Of a DNA stretch of 54,348 bases, positions 5,135 to 17,705 are shown one piece after another; position 1 is the stretch's first letter, and every line of letters begins with the position of its first letter. Position numbers and translations under genes: made by a program. The stretch spans positions 316,371 to 370,718 of the forward strand of contig JBBTXE010000001.1 in NCBI GenBank assembly GCA_038062455.1, read 5' to 3'. The notes beneath the pieces were generated by a model. It was not told the origin of the DNA. It saw nothing but the letters and a program-made list of their open reading frames with translations, and did no database searches. This DNA is from Patescibacteria group bacterium (lineage in GTDB: Bacteria; Patescibacteriota; Microgenomatia; UBA12405).

Positions 5135-6454
5135 ATGGCTATTGATTCCGACAACGATTTAACCGCCAAAATTGTTTCCCTTTGCAAACGTCGGGGGATA
5201 ATTTATCAAAATAGTGAGATCTACGGCGGCATCCAGGGTTTCTACGACTATGGTCCAATTGGATCTCTAATGAAAAATAATTGGAAAAACCTCTGGATCC
5301 GCGACAATGTTACCCGCCGCGACGATGTGGTTTTAATCGACGGATCAATTATTACTCACCCGAAAGTTTGGGAGGCATCGGGACATGTTAAAAATTTCGC
5401 TGATGCTCTGGTTGAATGCAAATCATGTCACCAACGGTTCCGGCCGGATTTAATTAATAACGCTAAAAAGTGCCCCGAATGTAACGGTGTTCTTACTAAA
5501 GCCCGCCAATATAACCTCCTTTTCCAAACCGAAATCGGAGTGATTGAAGGCGAAAAAATCCCGGCCTATCTTCGGGGTGAAGCCTGTCAAACCATTTATC
5601 TTGATTTTAAAAACATCATTGACTCCACCCGAGTCAAAATCCCCTTTGGTGTTGCCCAAATTGGCAAAGCCTTTCGAAATGAAATTACTCCCAAAAACTT
5701 TATTTATCGTACCCGCGAATTTGAACAATGGGATATCCAGTTCTTTGTCCATCCCGATGATATGGATAAATGGTATGAATACTGGAAAAAACAAAGATTT
5801 TCCTGGTATCAACAACTTTTTAACCAAAAGAAAAATCTTCGGCTCCGTCAACACCAACAAAATGAATTGGTTTTTTACACCCAAAAAGCCTATGATATTG
5901 AATTCAATTCCCCCTGGGGTTGGGCCGAAATGGAGGGAATTCATTGGCGGGGAGATTATGACCTAACCCAACACTCTAAATTCAGCGGCCAGAATCTTTC
6001 CTACACTGATCCTCAAACTCACAAAAAATATCTCCCCTATATTACTGAAACCTCCGGCGGTGTCGACCGTTCCTTTTTCTTTTTACTTCTTGATGCCTAT
6101 CAGGAAGATAAAACCGACCAGGGTGAAATCAGGATTTGGCTAAAAATTAATCCTCAAATTTCTGCCTACAAAATGGCTATATTTCCTCTCGCCAGCAACA
6201 AACCAGAGTTAGTTAACAAGGCCCGATCGATTTATAAAAAACTTCAAAACAAATATTCGGTTGATTTCGACGATAGCAGCAATATTGGTAAAAAATATCG
6301 TCGCCATGACGAAATTGGTACCCCCTGGTGTCTGGTGGTTGACTATCAAAGTCTGGTGGATAATACCGTTACTATTCGCGACCGGGACTCCATGACCCAA
6401 ATCCGTCTGGATATCAAAAAAATTGACTCTTGGTTGCGAAAAAAGTTAAACTAA
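5135..6454 (+). CDS. glyQS: Glycine--tRNA ligase, alpha2 type
   Basis: KIVSLCKRRG, YDYGPIG, YLRGEACQ, AQIGKAFRNEITP, RTREFEQ, ETSGGVDR, IGKKYRRHDEIGTP. Confidence 0.95.
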   Translation: MAIDSDNDLTAKIVSLCKRRGIIYQNSEIYGGIQGFYDYGPIGSLMKNNWKNLWIRDNVTRRDDVVLIDGSIITHPKVWEASGHVKNFADALVECKSCHQRFRPDLINNAKKCPECNGVLTKARQYNLLFQTEIGVIEGEKIPAYLRGEACQTIYLDFKNIIDSTRVKIPFGVAQIGKAFRNEITPKNFIYRTREFEQWDIQFFVHPDDMDKWYEYWKKQRFSWYQQLFNQKKNLRLRQHQQNELVFYTQKAYDIEFNSPWGWAEMEGIHWRGDYDLTQHSKFSGQNLSYTDPQTHKKYLPYITETSGGVDRSFFFLLLDAYQEDKTDQGEIRIWLKINPQISAYKMAIFPLASNKPELVNKARSIYKKLQNKYSVDFDDSSNIGKKYRRHDEIGTPWCLVVDYQSLVDNTVTIRDRDSMTQIRLDIKKIDSWLRKKLN

Positions 6455-8018: not shown

Positions 8019-9576
8019 TGACCGGATAAAAATACTTCAACTTACTATCATTGTTTCATTTTTTGTAGTCATCTTCCGTCTTTTTTACTGGCAAATCTTT
8101 CAGGGACAAACTATTCGAAACCGCCACCAAAATCAAATTTACCAACAAACAAAGGTTCTTCCAAAGCTCGGTCATTTATTAACATCAGATTCTTTTCCTA
8201 TCAGTCTTGATTCCCGTTTTTATCTTTTATCGCTCTATAAACCCAATCTCACTACCCAACTCGATAAGGTTCTGGTTTCTATAGAAAAAATAAAACCTGG
8301 GTTTACTTCAGAATCAGCTAAACAAATTGAGTTTTTCCTCAAACCACATATCAAATGGGTTACTCTGCCTACCAAATTCACTAGTGCTGAAATAAAAAAA
8401 ATCGATCTGCCTGGTATCAGCTTTGAGGAACAAATTACCCGATACTATCCGGAAGGGGATTTGGCCAAGGATTTAATTTTAAATCTTGAATACTATTACA
8501 AACGCAGTCTTTCGGGAAAAATAGGCTTTATTACTTCCCCGATAGACGCTACCGGCCAACCGATATTAAGCCGAAAAAACTGGCACAAAAGTGAAATCGA
8601 CGGGAAAACTATTTCCCTAAGTCTTAACCGTCAAATCCAAACGATTCTGGTTGCTTCTCTCGAAGATGGAATAAAACGTTTCCGGGCTGAAAATGCTACT
8701 GGAATAATTATCAGACCTCAAAGCGGCGAAATCATGGCTATGGCGACTGTTCCTCTGGTGGCCACTCAAAGTATGCCGCTCCGTCCCATTTCTTACCTTT
8801 TTGAACCCGGATCAATTTTCAAACCACTGGTTTTAGCCATGGCCCTAAATGAGGGCAGTGTCGGCCTTGATTTCGTCTGCCCGATCTGCGATAAACCGCG
8901 TATTTACGGCCAATATACTATTAATAACTGGGACGAAAAAACCCACCCCGATTCCACCCTTAAAGATGTCATCAGGAATTCAGACAACATCGCCATGAGC
9001 TATATTATCGAGAAACTGGGACTGGCCACCTTTCAAAAATATTTCCATCAACTTGGTCTTGATCAAAAAACCGGCGTTGACTTGGTGGGGGAATCAATTT
9101 CATTATTAAAAAAATACTGGTCTGATATTGATTTGGCCACCGCTTCATTTGGCCAGGGTTTCGCCGTCAATGAACTCCAAATGCTTCGGGCCTTTAACAC
9201 TCTGGCCAACCTTGGCCAGCTTTCCTCACCTCATCTCAACACCGCCATTCCTTTAAAAGAAAGTCCGGTTTTTTCCACCAATACAGTCGATAGCGTCGTC
9301 GACATTCTCAAATATGCCACCGAATTTGGCGCCGTTGGCAGTTTAAAACCAAAAAATCTTGAAGTCTGCGCCAAAAGCGGCACTGCTCAAGTAGCCATTA
9401 GCGGTCAATATACTGATACCGACGCAGTTGCTTCCTATATCGGTTTTTCTCCCTGCACTAACCCCAAATTCACCATGATAATTACCTTTGATAAACCAAA
9501 AACCTCTTCCTGGGGCTCATCTACCGCCGCCCCGATTTGGTTTGAAATCGCCGCTAAAATCTCCCCTTTGTTATAA
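8011..9576 (+). CDS. ftsI: Class B penicillin-binding protein (FtsI-like)
   Basis: TM anchor, EPGSIFK (SxxK), SDN (SxN), KSGTAQ (KTG). Start taken at ATG 8011. Confidence 0.88.
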   Translation: MNDDRIKILQLTIIVSFFVVIFRLFYWQIFQGQTIRNRHQNQIYQQTKVLPKLGHLLTSDSFPISLDSRFYLLSLYKPNLTTQLDKVLVSIEKIKPGFTSESAKQIEFFLKPHIKWVTLPTKFTSAEIKKIDLPGISFEEQITRYYPEGDLAKDLILNLEYYYKRSLSGKIGFITSPIDATGQPILSRKNWHKSEIDGKTISLSLNRQIQTILVASLEDGIKRFRAENATGIIIRPQSGEIMAMATVPLVATQSMPLRPISYLFEPGSIFKPLVLAMALNEGSVGLDFVCPICDKPRIYGQYTINNWDEKTHPDSTLKDVIRNSDNIAMSYIIEKLGLATFQKYFHQLGLDQKTGVDLVGESISLLKKYWSDIDLATASFGQGFAVNELQMLRAFNTLANLGQLSSPHLNTAIPLKESPVFSTNTVDSVVDILKYATEFGAVGSLKPKNLEVCAKSGTAQVAISGQYTDTDAVASYIGFSPCTNPKFTMIITFDKPKTSSWGSSTAAPIWFEIAAKISPLL

Positions 9577-9577
9577 T
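9569..9577 (+). promoter_or_regulatory. Extended -10 promoter (TGTTATAAT) for murE
   Basis: TGnTATAAT ends 12 nt before ATG 9590. Confidence 0.55.
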
Positions 9578-9589
9578 AAATCACGCCCT

Positions 9590-10816
9590 ATGTTCCAAAA
9601 ACTTAAAAACTATCTCTGGCACCTGCCCAGAACGCTTTTTTGGCAAACTTTCTACCTTTTCCCTCAAAAGTCATTGGTGTTAATCGGAGTTACTGGAACC
9701 GACGGCAAGACCAGTACCTGCAACCTTATCCACCAAATCTTATCCAACGCCAACATCAACGTTAAATCAATCACCACCATCAACAGCCCCGGACTTCACA
9801 CCACCAGCAATTTTAGCTCTAAAACTTTCTTTCAACTGTTAAAACAATATCAAAAAGACGGAGTTACTCATGTTATCTGTGAAGCCACTTCCCACGCCCT
9901 GGACCAATTTCGATACTTTGGCTGCCATTTCACCGCCAGTGTCATCACCAATCTCTCCCATGAACACCTTGACTATCACCGAAATATGGGAAACTATTTA
10001 AAAGCTAAATCACGTCTTTTTTGTCAATCAAAATATAAAATCCTCAACGCTGACGATCCTTATTTTCCGCAGCTAAAAAAACTACTCAAAAAAAACATTT
10101 TTACCTACTCAATCAAAAATCCATCAAACTTTCAGGCCAAAAAAATAAACATTTCCCCTGAATCTGTTTCTTTCGTCCTTGATAAGCAAATATATATTTC
10201 CGATTCACCCTATAAATACCAAATATACAATCTGCTGGCTGGTATCTCTCTAACCCAAAAACTCAAAATAAATAAAAAAATAATTATTGCCTCTATCCGC
10301 CACTTTCCTGAAACCAAAGGTCGACGGGAAATTGTCAAAAACAATTTCAAAATAAATTGTATTGTCGACTTTGCCCATACCCCCAACGCCTTATTTGAAA
10401 CTTTAACCGCACTTAAAATAATTTACCCGAATGGCAAACTTATCTGCCTCTTTGGCGCCACCGGTGGTCGTGACCAAAGCAAACGTCCTTTAATGGGAAA
10501 AATAGTTTCAGAAATCGCCGACGTTGCCATTATCACCGCTGACGACACTAGAAACGAACCAATCGATTCTATCAACCAGCAAATTATTTCCGGAATTAAT
10601 CCCAAAAAAATTAAGCAAAAAAAATTTCAGTATCACAATATCTTTAACCGTCAGGATGCCTTCAACTTTGCCGTCAAAATTGCTAACCCCGGCGATACTA
10701 TCATCGCCTGCGGCAAAGGCCATGAACTAAGCATCCTTCATAGTAAAACCGAATACCCTTGGTCGGAAACCGAAGCTTTTAAAACCGCTTTTAGAAATCG
10801 GGACCAAAATGTTTAA
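9590..10816 (+). CDS. murE: MurE-family Mur ligase
   Basis: IGVTGTDGKTST, EATSHALDQ, TNLSHEHLDYH, VDFAHTPNAL, FGATGGRD, GKGHE. Start taken at ATG 9590. Confidence 0.9.
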   Translation: MFQKLKNYLWHLPRTLFWQTFYLFPQKSLVLIGVTGTDGKTSTCNLIHQILSNANINVKSITTINSPGLHTTSNFSSKTFFQLLKQYQKDGVTHVICEATSHALDQFRYFGCHFTASVITNLSHEHLDYHRNMGNYLKAKSRLFCQSKYKILNADDPYFPQLKKLLKKNIFTYSIKNPSNFQAKKINISPESVSFVLDKQIYISDSPYKYQIYNLLAGISLTQKLKINKKIIIASIRHFPETKGRREIVKNNFKINCIVDFAHTPNALFETLTALKIIYPNGKLICLFGATGGRDQSKRPLMGKIVSEIADVAIITADDTRNEPIDSINQQIISGINPKKIKQKKFQYHNIFNRQDAFNFAVKIANPGDTIIACGKGHELSILHSKTEYPWSETEAFKTAFRNRDQNV

Positions 10817-11402
10817 CTTAAAAAATAACTTCTCTGTCGAAGAAAATTACCAAAACGGCTTCCTGCCGCAACGGAATTCCCGGAGTCTTTTTTACCAACA
10901 GACTAGCTGCCGATCCAATCTATCTTTATTTAACCTAAGTTCGGAAAATCGACGAATTCTTAACAAAACCGCCGCCTTTGCCTTTGAAGTTTCGCTTCTA
11001 TCTGATTTTTCATTTTCCTTAGCTACCCAAAAAACCATCTTTAAATGGGTAAAAAAACTCAACTGGGATTTCCCCATGTCCTCAATCAAAAATATCTTTA
11101 CCAATCATATCTTCAACCGACTTTATATTTGGAAAGACTCACCGGAAAGTATTATTGCCTATTCCCTTTGTTATTTCTCAAATACTCTTTCCCATATTGC
11201 TTACGTTTTTTACAATCCTGAGTTTTCCCATACCAATCTTCCCATCCGCCTTACCCTTCAGACTATTATCGATAGTCACCAAAATAAATTAGCTTTCTGC
11301 TACCTTGGCCGCTTTGACCCCAAACCGGAAGGCGTTGGCTACTACAAAAGAAACATGCCCGGATTTGAATACTTTTCTCAAAACCGGTGGAGACAATTAT
11401 GA
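10809..11402 (+). CDS. ATE1/Bpt-like aminoacyl-tRNA-dependent transferase (divergent, short)
   Basis: N-terminal Y..GF...R...F.LSSENRRIL and C-terminal HIAYVFYNPEF...CYLG...YYKR resemble the ATE_N and ATE_C consensus (VYTFYDPD...YYYLG...YK). Recognised by eye only. Confidence 0.6.
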   Translation: MFNLKNNFSVEENYQNGFLPQRNSRSLFYQQTSCRSNLSLFNLSSENRRILNKTAAFAFEVSLLSDFSFSLATQKTIFKWVKKLNWDFPMSSIKNIFTNHIFNRLYIWKDSPESIIAYSLCYFSNTLSHIAYVFYNPEFSHTNLPIRLTLQTIIDSHQNKLAFCYLGRFDPKPEGVGYYKRNMPGFEYFSQNRWRQL

Positions 11403-12712
11403 AAATTCATATTTTAGCGATTGGTGGCACCATGACTACTCCTTTGGCCCTAGCCTTAAAAAACGATGGCCACACCGTTACCGGCAGTGATCAAAAATAT
11501 ATTTATCCTCCTTTTAGCCAAAATCTTTACCATGCCCATATACCAATTAACCCCAAACTCAATTCTTTTTCTCCTGACTTAGTTATCGTCGGTTCTGCTT
11601 TTAAAAAATTTAGCCATACTCAAACCGAATTTGAATTTTTCAAAAATAAAAAAACTCCTTATATCTCCGCCACCAAATACATTGCTGACAATTTAATAAA
11701 AAGTAATAGTATTTTAGTTGCCGGAAGCTACGGTAAAACCACCATAACTGCGGCGCTTTCTTGGATCCTGACCAAAATCGGCTTTAATCCTTCTTATTTC
11801 TTCGGCGGCCAAAGTAAAAACCGTTTCCCGTCACTTAGGTTTTCCTCATCCGATTGGTCAGTAGTCGAAGCTGACGAATCTAAAAACGGTCTCGATACTC
11901 AGGCTAAGTTTTTATACTATCCGGTAAAATATTTGATTTTAACTTCATCCCGTTGGGAACATCACGATTCCTACAAAAGTAAAACCGAAAATCAAGAAAG
12001 TTTTATCAAACTAATTAAGCGGCTTCCCCCTGATGGCCTTTTGGTTTATAACGCCCAAGATCCGTCAACCAAGTCTCTTATCAAATACGCCCAATGTAAA
12101 AGTATCGACTATTCCCTATATACCTCAAAACATCCTTTTCTTTTCGGCCAACACAATCAAAACAATCTGGCGGCCTGCGTTATCCTCTGCCTTAATCTAG
12201 GAATAAGTCCTCAAAAAACTGATTTTTATCTTCAAAAATTTAAAGGCATTAAACGCCGGCTGGAATTAATATCAACTATAAAAAATACCTATTTTTACGA
12301 CGACTTTGGCCAAAATCCGATCCGTATCGATGCCTGTCTTTCGGCACTTGCCGATAAATTTCCCAATCAAAGAATTTTGGTTATTTTAGAACCACATGCT
12401 TCTTTTCTCCAATACCCAAACTCCCTCAAAGGCCTCGGTTCGGCTCTCAAAAAAGCCTCTAAAGTTTTTTTGGGTAAAATTCAATATTCTCAAAATAAAA
12501 ATACCCGAACCTCCTTTTCTGATTATCAAAAGCTTTTAGGTGATAAACTTATCTATCTGCCCCTTTACCCCGATCTCCAAAATTCGGTTTTGTCTTCCCT
12601 TAACCCAGGCGATGTTTTAGTTCACTTTAGTTCCGGAGGTCTGTCCGGCCTAAAAACCTTCAAACAAATTATTAATAAATTCAAATATCAAGCTTTAGAA
12701 ATTAGAAATTAG
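11399..12712 (+). CDS. MurC/Mpl-family ligase, N-terminus Mpl-like
   Basis: MKIHILAIGG...GHTVTGSDQKYIYPPFS, VAGSYGKTT, VEADES, KGIKRRLE, DDFGQNP, ILEPH. Confidence 0.85.
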   Translation: MKIHILAIGGTMTTPLALALKNDGHTVTGSDQKYIYPPFSQNLYHAHIPINPKLNSFSPDLVIVGSAFKKFSHTQTEFEFFKNKKTPYISATKYIADNLIKSNSILVAGSYGKTTITAALSWILTKIGFNPSYFFGGQSKNRFPSLRFSSSDWSVVEADESKNGLDTQAKFLYYPVKYLILTSSRWEHHDSYKSKTENQESFIKLIKRLPPDGLLVYNAQDPSTKSLIKYAQCKSIDYSLYTSKHPFLFGQHNQNNLAACVILCLNLGISPQKTDFYLQKFKGIKRRLELISTIKNTYFYDDFGQNPIRIDACLSALADKFPNQRILVILEPHASFLQYPNSLKGLGSALKKASKVFLGKIQYSQNKNTRTSFSDYQKLLGDKLIYLPLYPDLQNSVLSSLNPGDVLVHFSSGGLSGLKTFKQIINKFKYQALEIRN

Positions 12713-14057: not shown

Positions 14058-15092
14058 ATGATTCATCTCTACCTAGGTCTTCTTTTGTTTTCCTTTTTTA
14101 CCACCAGCATATTAGTTGTCCCCTTTATTAACATTCTCTATCGTCTTAAATTTCAGCGGCAGCGCCAAAAAACTCTCGATTTTCAAAATCGCCGGACGCC
14201 AATTTTTGATAAGTTTCACCGGGAAAAATCAGGTACTCCCGTTGGCGGCGGGCTATTAATTATCCTGTCAGTAACGATTCTCTTTTCCTTCCTTTTCCCG
14301 ATTCTTAAATTCTCCCAAATATTTATTTCCAGTAATTTCCGGCTCAATCATGAAATTGAAGTCATCTTTTTTACCTTTATTAGTTTTGGGCTTTTAGGTC
14401 TCTACGATGATATATCCAAATTTTTTGGAATCAAAAAATCCGGTTTCTTTGGTCTTAGGCTGAAACACAAACTTCTTCTTCAACTAATTTTAGCCGCTAT
14501 TGCCTCCTCCTTAATTTTTTTCCGTTTAGGAATTAATTTTATTTATCTACCCTTCCTTGGCGCCATTAATCTAGGTCTATTTTTTATTCCCATTTCTACT
14601 GTCATTATTGCGTCTTTCACTAATTTCTTTAACATTACCGACGGTCTTGATGGCTTATCCTGCGGCATCTTAACCATTTCCCTTTTTGCTTTCTGGATCC
14701 TGGCCGGCTCTTCCTTCGACACCCCTATTTCTCTTTTTATTTCCCTCTGGATTGGGGCTCTAATCGCCTTTCTCTACTTTAACGTCTTCCCCGCCCGAAT
14801 TTGGCTGGGCGATGTCGGTTCTCTTTCTTTTGGAGCTACTTTTGCCGTAATTGCTCTGCTCTTAGGGAAAATAGTTCCCTTAATTATTGTCGGCGCTCCT
14901 TTTATCATCGAAGGGCTAAGCAGCGCCATTCAAATAGTTTCCAAAACTTATTTTAAGAAAAAAGTCTTTCCGGCCGCCCCAATCCATCTGACCCTTCAAA
15001 AAATCGGTTGGGAAGAACCTAAAATTGTTTTACGTGCCTGGCTGGCAACCATTATTCTGGCTATCTTTGGCTTATGGCTGGGTCTAAACTAG
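14058..15092 (+). CDS. mraY: Phospho-N-acetylmuramoyl-pentapeptide transferase
   Basis: KSGTPVGGG, GLYDD, NFFNITDGLDGL, GDVGS, APIHLTLQKIGWEEPKIV; multi-TM. Confidence 0.93.
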   Translation: MIHLYLGLLLFSFFTTSILVVPFINILYRLKFQRQRQKTLDFQNRRTPIFDKFHREKSGTPVGGGLLIILSVTILFSFLFPILKFSQIFISSNFRLNHEIEVIFFTFISFGLLGLYDDISKFFGIKKSGFFGLRLKHKLLLQLILAAIASSLIFFRLGINFIYLPFLGAINLGLFFIPISTVIIASFTNFFNITDGLDGLSCGILTISLFAFWILAGSSFDTPISLFISLWIGALIAFLYFNVFPARIWLGDVGSLSFGATFAVIALLLGKIVPLIIVGAPFIIEGLSSAIQIVSKTYFKKKVFPAAPIHLTLQKIGWEEPKIVLRAWLATIILAIFGLWLGLN

Positions 15093-15649
15093 ATCTTCTC
15101 TACCTTGAAACTCAAAAATACCTTGGCTTACCCTACTTTTCTAATCTAGGTCGACACCAAACCTCATCTTCAAACAACGCTGATGTCGGAAAAGGCAGTG
15201 CCAAAGAAATTGCTCTCAGAACAATTGAGATCGCGAACCTTGAAAATATTAAATTAGTTAATCTGTCCCCAATCCAAATTTACAACTTTCAAAAAAAGCA
15301 CCGTCTCGGCATCGATTGTTCCGGTCTCGTTTGTCATCTTTTAAATTTTTATTTCTCACTTTCACTGAATCCCCGAAAAACCTCTGCCAATAAATTGACT
15401 TCCTTACCTCTCTCTACCACTATCAAACTCGGCGATATTCGCACCGGGGATCTTATCCGTCAAAAAAACGGTCGCCATGTTCTCTTCGTCATCAACCGTT
15501 TAGGCGACACCGTCAGCTACACCGACAGCCGTAAAGACAGCCGTGGAGTCAAAACTGACTCCTTTTCCCTGTCAAAACCGGATATTGAAATCGGGGGAGT
15601 ATTTCGGCTTACTTCTCTTCTATCAATACCTGATATTTCCACGGATTAA
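15074..15649 (+). CDS. NlpC/P60-like cysteine hydrolase
   Basis: GLPY...GIDCSGLV (catalytic Cys) and GDLI...GRHV (catalytic His). Confidence 0.7.
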   Translation: MAGSKLDLLYLETQKYLGLPYFSNLGRHQTSSSNNADVGKGSAKEIALRTIEIANLENIKLVNLSPIQIYNFQKKHRLGIDCSGLVCHLLNFYFSLSLNPRKTSANKLTSLPLSTTIKLGDIRTGDLIRQKNGRHVLFVINRLGDTVSYTDSRKDSRGVKTDSFSLSKPDIEIGGVFRLTSLLSIPDISTD

Positions 15650-15767
15650 GCGACACCATCTCTACTTCGGTCCCACACTCGCTACATTCTAAAATATCAC
15701 CTATCATTGTTTTATCACTATTTTTTATTTCCGCCTGACAATCAGGACAAATTACTTTTCCCATCAT
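15609..15767 (-). CDS. LysW/ArgW-like amino-group carrier protein (52 aa, absent from the ORF track)
   Basis: Hand translation: MMGKVICPDCQAEIKNSDKTMIGDILECSECGTEVEMVSLNPWKYQVLIEEK*. Two CxxC knuckles and the G[D/E]xxxCxxCGxExEVxSL[D/N]P pattern of LysW. Confidence 0.8.
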   Translation of the reverse strand: MMGKVICPDCQAEIKNSDKTMIGDILECSECGTEVEMVSLNPWKYQVLIEEK

Positions 15768-15795: not shown

Positions 15796-16596
15796 ATGAC
15801 ACCTTTAATCAAAATTGACTCAATCTTTCTAAAAAGGGAAGATCAAAACCCCACCGGCTCCGCCAAAGACAGAGCCCTTTTGCCTCAAGTCCAAAATCTA
15901 AAATCTAAAGGTTTTTCAAAAGCTGTCATTTCCTCAACCGGTAATGCCGCCATATCCGCTCAATTTTATTGCCGAAAGTTTCAAATTCCCTTAACTATTT
16001 TTCTTCCTCCGGCCGCTTCTCCTGAAAAACTCAAATTACTTGGCAAATTCACTATCTCCCCCAGACCAATCAGTGACGCCATTAAATTTGCCAAAGCCAA
16101 TCACGCCTATCTTCTCCGGCAATCTACCGATCCGGTTGCCCTCGAGGGTTACCAACAAATCGGTCAGGAGCTCATCTTTCAACTTCCCCAAATCAGCAGC
16201 CTTTTTGTTCCGGTTGGCAGCGGCACTACTCTGTTGGGTATCTCCCAAAGCCTACCTCAACCTGTCAAAATTTTTGCTGTTCAACCGGCCTCCCATTGCC
16301 CGATATCTTCATTATTTGACAAAAATTATTCTTCTGAAACCAGTTCACTAACCGACTCTCTCGGCGCTAAATATTTACCCCTAAAAAACAATATTTTAAA
16401 GGCTATTAGAGAAAGCGGGGGCGGGGGAGTTGTAGTTCAAAATCGAAATATTGAAATTGCCCAATCTTTCCTCATAAATAACAAAATCATTACTTCATCT
16501 GAAGGCGCATTGGCCCTAGCCGGATACCGAAAAATAAAAGAGGTTTACAATGTTGGCAACTATCCGGTTATTTTATTAACAGGGGCCAAAAGATGA
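15796..16596 (+). CDS. PLP-dependent enzyme, fold type II (threonine-synthase-like)
   Basis: LKREDQNPTGSAKDR (PLP lysine), SSTGNAA, EGYQQIGQEL, VPVGSGTT, SSEGALALAG. Confidence 0.85.
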   Translation: MTPLIKIDSIFLKREDQNPTGSAKDRALLPQVQNLKSKGFSKAVISSTGNAAISAQFYCRKFQIPLTIFLPPAASPEKLKLLGKFTISPRPISDAIKFAKANHAYLLRQSTDPVALEGYQQIGQELIFQLPQISSLFVPVGSGTTLLGISQSLPQPVKIFAVQPASHCPISSLFDKNYSSETSSLTDSLGAKYLPLKNNILKAIRESGGGGVVVQNRNIEIAQSFLINNKIITSSEGALALAGYRKIKEVYNVGNYPVILLTGAKR

Positions 16597-17705
16597 ATCT
16601 AGAAAACATTCTTGCCCATTTGCCGGTAGACTTTTTCTTTTTAGTAGTTGATAAGTTTTTAGATATTAACCTGCCCCGTCTTCCCAATTTCTATCCTATT
16701 TATCACCCCCATCTTTCCGTCAAAAACAGTGGTTATCTTTTATCGCAACCCGAAACTTTTGACTTTATCCAAAAAACAATCTCTTATTCCGGGCACAAAG
16801 TGGCCATTATTCCTTTCAAACCTTCAGCTAAAATCGATTTTATTTGTAAAAAAAATAATTGGATTTGTGTCGGCAACCCTCCTTCTTTAAATCGATTTTT
16901 TGAGAACAAAATAAATTTTCCCCAAATTATTACCAACTCCCATCTTCCCCAAATTCCCCATATTTCCGGCCCCTTAAATTCTAAACTATTATCCATTGCT
17001 GAAAAAAAATTCAATCTGCCCCTTGTTATCCAAACTCACTCCGGTTGGGCCGGCAACAGCACTCATTTAATTAAAGATTTAAAAAAAATATTTCAAATAA
17101 TTCCCCATGACACTCCAACAAAAATTTCTCCCTATCTTATCGGTTACACCCTCCTTAATAATTGCTGTCTAACTAGCCGCGGACTTCTCCAAAGTCCTCC
17201 CGCTCTCCAATATACCGGCATCCCCACGTTAACTTCAAACCCCTTTTCTACCGTTGGCCGCCAATGGCCCTCCCTGGCTCCTCCTAAAATTATTGCCAAA
17301 ATCCAAAAACTCACCACCAATTTTTCCGAAACTCTAAAAAAATATAAATACCGCGGTTTCTTTGGCCTGGATTTTCTGGTTTCTAAAAATATAGTTTATC
17401 TTTTAGAGTGCAACCCCCGCCTGACTGCCTCTTTTGCCTTTTATACCGACATCGAACTAAAAAATAAGCTAAACCCGCTTTTTTATTTTCACCTATTAGA
17501 GTTTTGCGCCCCGGATCAAATCAAAGATCTGACAAACGAAAACCGTTTTGACAACAAAAATATTATTGGCTCGGAAATTACCCTAAAAAACAAGCTCTCT
17601 GTAACCATTAATAAATATCACGATTACAAAATATTTTGCCATCATCTAAATCCGCAGCATATTGATCTGTCAATTTTAAAAAATCTCCAGAATGAAAAAA
17701 ACTAA
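16593..17705 (+). CDS. ATP-grasp ligase
   Basis: FENKINF, PLVIQTHSGWAGNST loop, YRGFFGLDFLV...YLLECNPRLTAS (ExN motif). ATGA overlap with the PLP gene. Confidence 0.85.
   Translation: MNLENILAHLPVDFFFLVVDKFLDINLPRLPNFYPIYHPHLSVKNSGYLLSQPETFDFIQKTISYSGHKVAIIPFKPSAKIDFICKKNNWICVGNPPSLNRFFENKINFPQIITNSHLPQIPHISGPLNSKLLSIAEKKFNLPLVIQTHSGWAGNSTHLIKDLKKIFQIIPHDTPTKISPYLIGYTLLNNCCLTSRGLLQSPPALQYTGIPTLTSNPFSTVGRQWPSLAPPKIIAKIQKLTTNFSETLKKYKYRGFFGLDFLVSKNIVYLLECNPRLTASFAFYTDIELKNKLNPLFYFHLLEFCAPDQIKDLTNENRFDNKNIIGSEITLKNKLSVTINKYHDYKIFCHHLNPQHIDLSILKNLQNEKN

Follow-up and report, generated by a model that had tools for sequence, protein, structure and literature searches.

How a bacterium without MurD builds the stem peptide of its cell wall is the question raised by a locus in the genome of a Patescibacteria group bacterium (GTDB lineage Patescibacteriota; Microgenomatia; UBA12405; assembly GCA_038062455.1). 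The cytoplasmic Mur pathway (MurC, MurD, MurE and MurF), a classic target of antibiotics, is regarded as almost universal among bacteria with a wall. The window analysed here is a stretch of 54,348 nucleotides (contig JBBTXE010000001.1, positions 316,371 to 370,718, forward strand), and all coordinates without a contig name refer to it. Within its division and cell wall (dcw) gene cluster, a 197-aa open reading frame (ORF; 10809..11402, + strand), hereafter X, is enclosed between murE and a second Mur-type ligase gene. The original prediction described X as an ATE1/Bpt-like, tRNA-dependent aminoacyl transferase that had been diverted from N-degron pathways to the cell wall. The results presented below suggest that, in ultra-small bacteria of the candidate phyla radiation (CPR) without MurD or a recognisable MurC, the first wall-peptide bond is made by an undescribed tRNA-dependent route. 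We consider it likely that X is a tRNA-dependent transferase which works together with the Mpl-like ligase encoded next to it in the stem-peptide synthesis of these MurD-less CPR bacteria. Full-text literature searches returned no description of this X–ligase system.

The source genome (665 kb, 86% complete) contains only three Mur-type ligases, namely MurE, the Mpl-like ligase and MurF, the last of which is located next to Ddl. Most genomes of the same genus, including some that are 93–100% complete, similarly hold three Mur ligases, and X-positive genomes of high quality usually hold exactly these three. Within the order to which the source genome belongs (132 genomes), X was found in 107 genomes, none of which had MurD, compared to 12 of the 25 X-negative genomes (Fisher p=1.5e-10). 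Ten of the 12 MurD sequences scored over the cut-off (336–380 bits) and the remaining two were contig-end fragments. These 12 genomes constitute family f2 together with two of the three genomes of genus g18, which lies inside family f1, the family of the source genome, and X was present in none of them. In g18, the dcw cluster is without X, the Mpl-like ligase and two enzymes of an associated module described further below, a pyridoxal phosphate (PLP) enzyme and an ATP-grasp ligase, and a MurD–MurC pair is instead found elsewhere in the genome. At least two switches between X and MurD have taken place inside a single order, one concerning family f2 and the other g18 inside f1. The same exclusion was seen in an even sample of the phylum (401 genomes), where X occurred in 19 genomes from 7 families and MurD in 316 genomes: MurD was found in none of the 19 X-positive genomes and in 316 of the 382 X-negative ones (Fisher p=2.8e-14). 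MurD and canonical MurC were strictly absent wherever X occurred.

Three genomes of the order that were negative for both X and MurD and positive for the ATP-grasp gene (G080, G088 and G033) were considered as exceptions to this pattern and rejected, as a contig break falls inside the dcw cluster in each of them. The most discriminating genome was G187, which is 100% complete in 8 contigs and contains X, the Mpl-like ligase, MurE and MurF–Ddl, with neither MurD nor an ATP-grasp ligase of the module type. Judging from this gene set, the loss of MurC and MurD goes along, at a minimum, with the presence of X and the ligase.

The ligase gene downstream of X (11399..12712, + strand) had been named murC/mpl in the original prediction, and only the second half of this name stood. 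Its product scored 197 bits with the MurC model (cut-off 335.1) and 188 bits with the Mpl model TIGR01081 (cut-off 388.7), below the cut-off in both cases, whereas the canonical MurCs of sister CPR genomes reached 349–358 bits on the MurC model and 133–172 bits on the Mpl model. The nearest solved structure was the Mpl of P. arcticus (PaMpl, 3hn7), with 134 bits compared to 98 bits for the best MurC. Comparison with Mpl-specific residues taken from the literature (PMC3060825) revealed several Mpl-only features in the ligase, namely GSD..YPPxS, an extra loop after EADE, and a C-terminal SSGG, which reads SNGG in Mpl. The EPRSNT and DDFAHHP motifs are altered, the former position reading EPHASF, EPNTGN or E(I/A/M)FSSS. 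In a maximum-likelihood tree, 25 X-coupled ligases from 8 families formed one clade (95/92), sister to E. coli Mpl (99/99) and apart from both E. coli MurC and the CPR MurCs. Structure match, motifs and tree thus all point to the obligate partner of X being an Mpl-type ligase, that is, one that joins a peptide to UDP-MurNAc (UDP-N-acetylmuramic acid), and not a canonical MurC. In the phylum-wide MurC survey no X-positive genome was found at the E-value level of the cut-off, though across the phylum the MurC model does not discriminate, as many CPR MurCs score low and Mpl-like ligases reach up to approximately 300 bits.

The association between X and this ligase is exceptionless in the loci surveyed. 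In the GTDB loci with X, the Mpl-like ligase was immediately downstream in 80 of 80 cases and MurE immediately upstream in 79 of 79, so that the predicted linkage of X homologues to dcw genes was borne out. Moreover, X and the ligase have stayed together in six additional families belonging to other classes of the phylum, also in those loci that have murE elsewhere; the gene order there is mostly ATP-grasp, NlpC, mraY, X, ligase, LysW-like and PLP. In two cases the genes are fused: an X::ligase protein of 645 aa with a flexible Pro/Ser linker was found in G030 (P0122), and one of 688 aa in G439, which belongs to a different clade. The fusions arose independently, since the trees show unfused neighbours around each of them. 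The X and ligase trees are congruent, with the major clades common to both, indicating that the two genes have been inherited as a pair.

X itself is a real gene, far beyond chance, as shown by 467 homologous proteins (E≤1e-3), falling into 90 clusters at the 50% identity level, and by an AlphaFold2 model with a mean confidence (pLDDT) of 96.0 and a pTM of 0.91. The homologues are mostly 60–90% identical to X and come from Shapirobacteria and other Microgenomates. The start of X overlaps the stop of murE by 8 nt (ATGTTTAA, 10809..10816, + strand), which suggests that the two are translationally coupled, while at its other end X runs 4 nt into the ligase gene, its TGA stop and the ATG start being merged in ATGA (11399..11402, + strand); with the alternative GTG start of the ligase at 11387 the overlap would be 16 nt. 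Both overlaps had been foreseen, as had the motifs, all of which are present: NGFLPQR (aa 16–22), FNLSSENRRIL (41–51), AYVFYNPEF (131–139), CYLG (164–167) and YYKR (178–181). The N-terminal region has a single cysteine (C34), also as predicted, where ATE and Bpt enzymes carry a Cys cluster. In an alignment of 63 X sequences, G17, R35, R49, Y165, G167, Y179, K180 and W194 were invariant, the SSENRR segment (S45, E46, N47, R48) was near-invariant and H129 nearly so, and no Cys column was conserved. The signature SSENRRIL (aa 44–51; 10938..10961, + strand) falls on a helix spanning residues 45–53 of the model. The acceptor arm of the tRNA is bound by a basic helix in ATE1, FemX and related enzymes (PMC10115844), and by analogy the helix with this signature (SENRRILNKT) would be the one that contacts the acceptor stem in X.

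The proposed kinship of X with ATE1 and Bpt was weak at the sequence level and clear in the fold. X matched the Pfam ATE_C profile (PF04377) with 19.9 bits (cut-off 25), though more distant full-length relatives exceeded the cut-off with 30–36 bits. Six NCBIfam models for Bpt or arginyltransferases matched at E-values of 1e-5 to 1e-3, with 18–24 bits as compared to cut-offs of 170–267, and no match to ATE_N (PF04376) was found in X or 10 relatives. A profile search of the PDB sequences returned only marginal matches to GNAT proteins and ATE1 (E 0.008–1), so the link between X and ATE1 rests on the fold and on the Pfam and NCBIfam profiles. When the AlphaFold2 model, which was built from the 63-sequence alignment, was compared to the PDB with Foldseek, the ATE1 enzymes of human, yeast and K. 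lactis headed the list (8tzv, 8e3s, 7tif and 7wg4; E 6e-8, probability 1.00), with template modelling (TM) scores of 0.70–0.75 normalised to the query. They were followed by the aminoacyl-phosphatidylglycerol synthase MprF, FemX (TM 0.57–0.62) and the tRNA-dependent peptide synthase Sba18, and all of these enzymes use aminoacyl-tRNA. The search for an ATE/Fem-type GNAT match thus gave a positive answer. The premise of a double-GNAT fold did not survive, as the secondary structure of the model consists of one GNAT core following a small N-terminal beta element within the 197 aa. X is thus a minimal ATE/Bpt-fold member of the aminoacyl-tRNA transferase superfamily, distinct from canonical Bpt. 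A distant member of the X family was also noted in a metagenomic protein of 809 aa (P0195), in which it is fused to PPDK_N and phosphoenolpyruvate (PEP)-utilizer domains rather than to a Mur ligase.

Given this fold, X could in principle be an ordinary Bpt-type enzyme of the N-degron pathway, tagging proteins for ClpS/ClpAP and located in the dcw cluster by chance. The weak matches to Bpt and arginyltransferase models would be in line with this, and JGI annotates relatives of X as arginyl-tRNA--protein arginylyltransferase. Nevertheless, the best of these matches reached 24 bits where 170–267 are required, the ATE_N domain and the Cys cluster are missing, and ClpS (PF02617) was not found over the cut-off in the source genome or 40 relatives (41 genomes in total), while the control genomes were positive. 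An N-degron enzyme would, moreover, leave unexplained the invariant position in the operon, the fusion to a Mur-family ligase and the complementarity with MurD. This explanation is therefore extremely improbable, and the view of the original prediction that X does not act in an N-degron system is upheld.

Another explanation that does without an N-degron role is that X has no catalytic function and binds tRNA or aminoacyl-tRNA to tune the ligase, so that wall synthesis would follow tRNA charging, in which case a single ligase or some other enzyme would add both of the first two residues. The loss of the ATE_N zinc/Fe-S element fits such a function, as does the P0122 fusion, in which a flexible Pro/Ser linker tethers X to its partner. 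On the other hand, R35, R49, Y165, Y179, K180 and W194 of the GNAT core are invariant, and H129, E46 and N47 nearly so, among sequences with 22–30% identity, as is typical for active sites. A regulatory X would also leave the missing peptide bond without an explanation, and we regard this function as very unlikely.

The original prediction had cast X as a cell-wall peptide aminoacyl transferase, by implication one in the manner of FemABX and MurM. The part of this claim that ties X to the wall stood, given its connection to the genes for wall precursors through MurE, the ligase and the fusions, while the implied branching role did not. In a Fem/MurM-like role, X would add a residue to the epsilon-amine of residue 3, either on the UDP-MurNAc-peptide or on lipid II, and MurD would be replaced by other means, for example by the module of ATP-grasp, LysW-like and PLP proteins. 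X and the Fem enzymes are members of one superfamily, with FemX listed in the fold matches, X is encoded in the dcw cluster next to murE, and the ATP-grasp module co-varies with the absence of MurD in the order and could be the true MurD substitute. Branching predicts no relation to MurD, though, yet X and MurD are strictly complementary, so that such a role is not supported. It likewise leaves unexplained why X is exclusively paired with, and in places fused to, an Mpl-type ligase and not MurE, MurF or MraY, and why G187 is MurD-less and keeps the pair with no ATP-grasp gene. Furthermore, X has one GNAT core where Fem enzymes have two lobes, and no Pfam match to FemAB (PF02388) was obtained for X at E≤1. 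A branching function is accordingly judged unlikely, and the complementarity with MurD, combined with the Mpl-type partner, argues for a role of X in the backbone of the stem peptide (positions 1–2) rather than in a side branch.

A stem-peptide role is compatible with the chemistry of the enzymes involved. In Mur ligases it is the carboxylate of the growing precursor that is activated, whereas tRNA-dependent transferases donate an activated aminoacyl group to an amine. As the latter acylate amines only, X would not be able to extend UDP-MurNAc-L-Ala at its C-terminus, but it could link residue 2, through its amine, to residue 1. Since MurE is retained and X acylates amines, established enzymology would place the missing bond between residues 1 and 2, with its formation taking place off the nucleotide. 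With MurE and MurF kept, and with only one further ligase, which belongs to the peptide-adding Mpl type, a scheme that proceeds via a dipeptide is the simplest.

In the route that we propose, with a probability of roughly 0.5, X transfers residue 1 from aminoacyl-tRNA to the amine of glutamate and the Mpl-like ligase loads the resulting dipeptide onto UDP-MurNAc, the two enzymes together replacing MurC and MurD. Residue 1 would most likely be L-Ala from Ala-tRNA, with Gly or Ser as possible alternatives, and its transfer to the alpha-amino group of glutamate would yield Ala-Glu. This acceptor would be of the type that ATE1 and Bpt ancestrally use, the alpha-amine of an N-terminal Asp or Glu. 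The ligase would then join the ready-made dipeptide to UDP-MurNAc in an ATP-driven reaction, after which MurE and then MurF would complete the pentapeptide as usual. We infer the donor, the acceptor, the dipeptide intermediate and the origin of the D-configuration of the glutamate. The second step has a precedent, as Mpl enzymes act on peptides made beforehand, and L-Ala-D-Glu is a substrate of PaMpl, albeit a weak one (PMC3060825).

The Mpl-type ligase also allows for a different explanation, in which the pair edits salvaged material: X would re-cap scavenged wall fragments from a host, for instance by adding L-Ala to gamma-D-Glu-Lys or gamma-D-Glu-diaminopimelate, and the ligase would couple the tripeptide thus restored, in the way that true Mpl acts in recycling. 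Such a function would agree with the life of CPR bacteria as scavenging epibionts. Similarly, the cluster encodes a cytoplasmic NlpC/P60 peptidase, which one family has as a fusion with the ligase, and MurI was not found over the cut-off in the order. A ligase that adds a tripeptide would, however, make MurE needless, and yet MurE was directly upstream in all 79 loci. In addition, the Arg of the EPRSNT motif, a proposed peptide contact in Mpl, is not conserved in the ligase (PMC3060825). Salvage editing is thus quite unlikely.

The genes that accompany the pair need to be considered in this context. The dcw cluster of the window runs GlyRS (glycyl-tRNA synthetase), hypothetical, mraW, ftsL-like, penicillin-binding protein, murE, X, ligase, murA, mraY, NlpC/P60-like, LysW-like (minus strand), PLP enzyme, ATP-grasp, ftsW, murG, ftsA and ftsZ. 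The putative NlpC/P60-like cysteine peptidase (15074..15649, + strand; Pfam NLPC_P60, E=2.5e-4), predicted to be cytoplasmic, is also present in MurD-containing relatives. In family f76 an NlpC/P60-like domain is appended to the C-terminus of the Mpl-like ligase, giving a protein of approximately 695 aa (L102, 7385–9472, minus strand; L104, 3880–5973, plus strand), which constitutes a second Rosetta-stone fusion of the ligase. The LysW-like zinc-ribbon protein (15609..15767, − strand; PF21344, 47.5 bits) has 52 aa and ends in ...EEK. Its C-terminal residue is Lys in 73 of 73 genuine homologues, with endings such as ...ELIEEK, ...VVDEGK and ...YLxxxK across deep lineages, as opposed to the Glu in which canonical LysW ends, and this difference suggests a different tethering chemistry. 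The PLP enzyme (15796..16596, + strand) is of fold-type II (PALP; threonine synthase/SbnA-like) and is co-located with X in six further families, and the phyletic distribution of the ATP-grasp ligase (16593..17705, + strand) matches that of X within the order. Together, the PLP enzyme and the ATP-grasp ligase accompany the X–ligase pair in seven families.

These proteins could be accommodated in an extended version of the route, in which the products of six genes form a carrier-based pathway to L-Ala-D-Glu that bypasses MurC, MurD and MurI. The ATP-grasp ligase would tether L-Glu via its gamma-carboxyl group to the C-terminal Lys of the LysW-like protein, leaving the alpha-amine free, and the PLP enzyme would epimerise the tethered Glu. 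X would then add L-Ala from Ala-tRNA to the amine of the tethered Glu, echoing its ancestry among enzymes that act on protein N-termini, whereupon the NlpC/P60 peptidase, by its gamma-D-Glu-Lys specificity, would free L-Ala-D-Glu for loading onto UDP-MurNAc by the Mpl-like ligase. Lineages such as that of G187 would use free Glu instead. This extended pathway is put forward as a tentative and rather unlikely elaboration, and the simpler dipeptide route is preferred to it.

A number of observations weigh against the preferred route. The phyletic counts, and with them the Fisher tests, are not phylogenetically independent, the X-positive genomes of the phylum sample representing approximately seven families, and the placement of the ligase as sister to Mpl is based on one Mpl and one non-CPR MurC. 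The X family is without the zinc finger of ATE1, an N-terminal element that helps to position the 3' end of the tRNA (PMC10115844). No dedicated non-proteinogenic tRNA was found among the 40 tRNAs, in which no anticodon except CAU is duplicated. Furthermore, MurI (TIGR00067) was over the cut-off in none of the 132 genomes of the order, the MurD-containing ones included, which leaves the source of D-Glu unaccounted for; being absent both with and without MurD, MurI was discarded as a discriminator between the explanations. Epimerisation after incorporation is possible, as in the MurD2/MurL route of Xanthomonas, where L-Glu is first added and then epimerised (PMC5808125). Finally, the ATP-grasp gene was present in 112 of the 132 genomes of the order and in none of f2 or g18, which is the same anti-MurD pattern as that of X, and elsewhere in the phylum it was found along with X in 16 of 18 X-positive genomes, the LysW-like and PLP genes adjoining it in the loci examined. 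The module of LysW-like, PLP and ATP-grasp proteins could therefore itself be the replacement for MurD, making it a serious rival or a partner of X. Only G187 separates X from the ATP-grasp gene, and the proteins of this genome are on long branches.

Two further genes of the cluster were assessed as potential clues and set aside. GlyRS, a class II synthetase (5135..6454, + strand; 554 bits), is encoded two genes upstream of mraW, an arrangement conserved in 63 of 80 loci. It was rejected as a clue to the donor amino acid, since GlyRS is also found beside the X-less cluster of genus g18. The murE gene (9488..10816, + strand, with a likely ATG start at approximately 9590) scored 311.7 bits with TIGR01085 (cut-off 257), aligning from model position 75, and its product is without the N-terminal UDP-binding domain 1. 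This could have been taken as a sign that the peptide is assembled off the nucleotide, but the same truncation was found in MurD-containing relatives (G054 and G035) as well as X-positive ones, so that the loss of domain 1 is a trait of the lineage that is not linked to X. With regard to tRNA genes, two ARAGORN predictions in G000 were noted. One, outside the window (C1:386510-386585), is located among other tRNA genes in a cluster, has the amber-reading anticodon CUA and carries the label 'Pyl', and the other is a 97-nt 'tRNA-Asn(att)' (C1:18302-18398).

The large and deep set of CPR bacteria that is without MurD and canonical MurC, and that always carries X paired with an Mpl-type ligase, includes most of one Microgenomates order (Shapirobacteria-type) and at least six families in other classes. 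New in the present analysis are the complementarity with MurD at the levels of order and phylum, G187 as the discriminating case, the absence of ClpS, the placement of the ligase in the Mpl clade, and the dismissal of the argument from the domain-1-less MurE. If the proposed function is correct, aminoacyl-tRNA would be the source of a bond in the stem-peptide backbone, which would constitute a new link between translation and wall synthesis, and X would be a plausible relative in metabolism, or perhaps the ancestor, of the N-degron enzymes ATE1 and Bpt. The calls of 'incomplete peptidoglycan synthesis' in pathway annotations of CPR genomes would, moreover, need to be revised.

Among known systems, Mpl is the closest counterpart of the partner ligase, to which it is connected by the sister-clade relationship (99/99), the common Mpl-only indel and motifs and the nearest solved structure. 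Mpl itself attaches a preformed peptide to UDP-MurNAc, with weak acceptance of L-Ala-D-Glu (PMC3060825). The partner ligase differs in that it scores below the Mpl cut-off and has changed EPRSNT and DDFAHHP motifs. Furthermore, Mpl is a recycling enzyme, whereas the partner ligase is probably biosynthetic, because it is the only MurC/Mpl-type ligase of its genome, and the retention of MurE implies that its peptide substrate would be shorter than that of Mpl.

With the eukaryotic arginyl-tRNA--protein transferase ATE1 and the bacterial leucyl-tRNA--protein transferase Bpt, covered by PF04376, PF04377 and the NCBIfam arginyltransferase entry PRK01305, X has in common the GNAT core with a small beta element (TM 0.70–0.75), a weak ATE_C sequence match and a C-terminal motif of the type YLG ... 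YK ... F.G.E.F..W. These enzymes possess ATE_N, a Cys cluster and a zinc finger, none of which are found in X, and they are considerably larger, X being less than half the size of ATE1 and approximately 40 aa shorter than Bpt. X also differs in being encoded in a dcw operon, in places fused to an Mpl-type ligase, in genomes without ClpS. Their acceptor is a protein N-terminus, whereas that of X would presumably be a small molecule or a tethered Glu.

FemX, FemABX and MurM belong to the same GNAT-derived superfamily, FemX being among the fold matches of X, and they use aminoacyl-tRNA for a peptide bond of the cell wall. In contrast to X with its one core, they consist of two GNAT-like lobes (approximately 335 aa) and have the epsilon-amine of residue 3 as their acceptor, while the phyletic pattern of X is tied to positions 1–2 (MurC/MurD) and not to branching. 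The tRNA-dependent transferases DhpH-C, PacB, VlmA and Sba18, the last of which was also among the fold matches, act on small molecules and provide precedents, in that they move an aminoacyl group from tRNA to an amine on a small molecule resembling an amino acid. They differ from X in functioning in secondary metabolism, in belonging to other subfamilies and in having no coupling to a Mur ligase. Finally, the MurD2–MurL pair of Xanthomonas resembles the proposed route in departing from the MurI and MurD scheme at position 2, and it is the only such departure that has been described (PMC5808125). In that system a ligase of the MurD family acts on the nucleotide-linked precursor, whereas in the CPR bacteria considered here, which have no MurD-family enzyme, this position would be served by a tRNA-dependent transferase.

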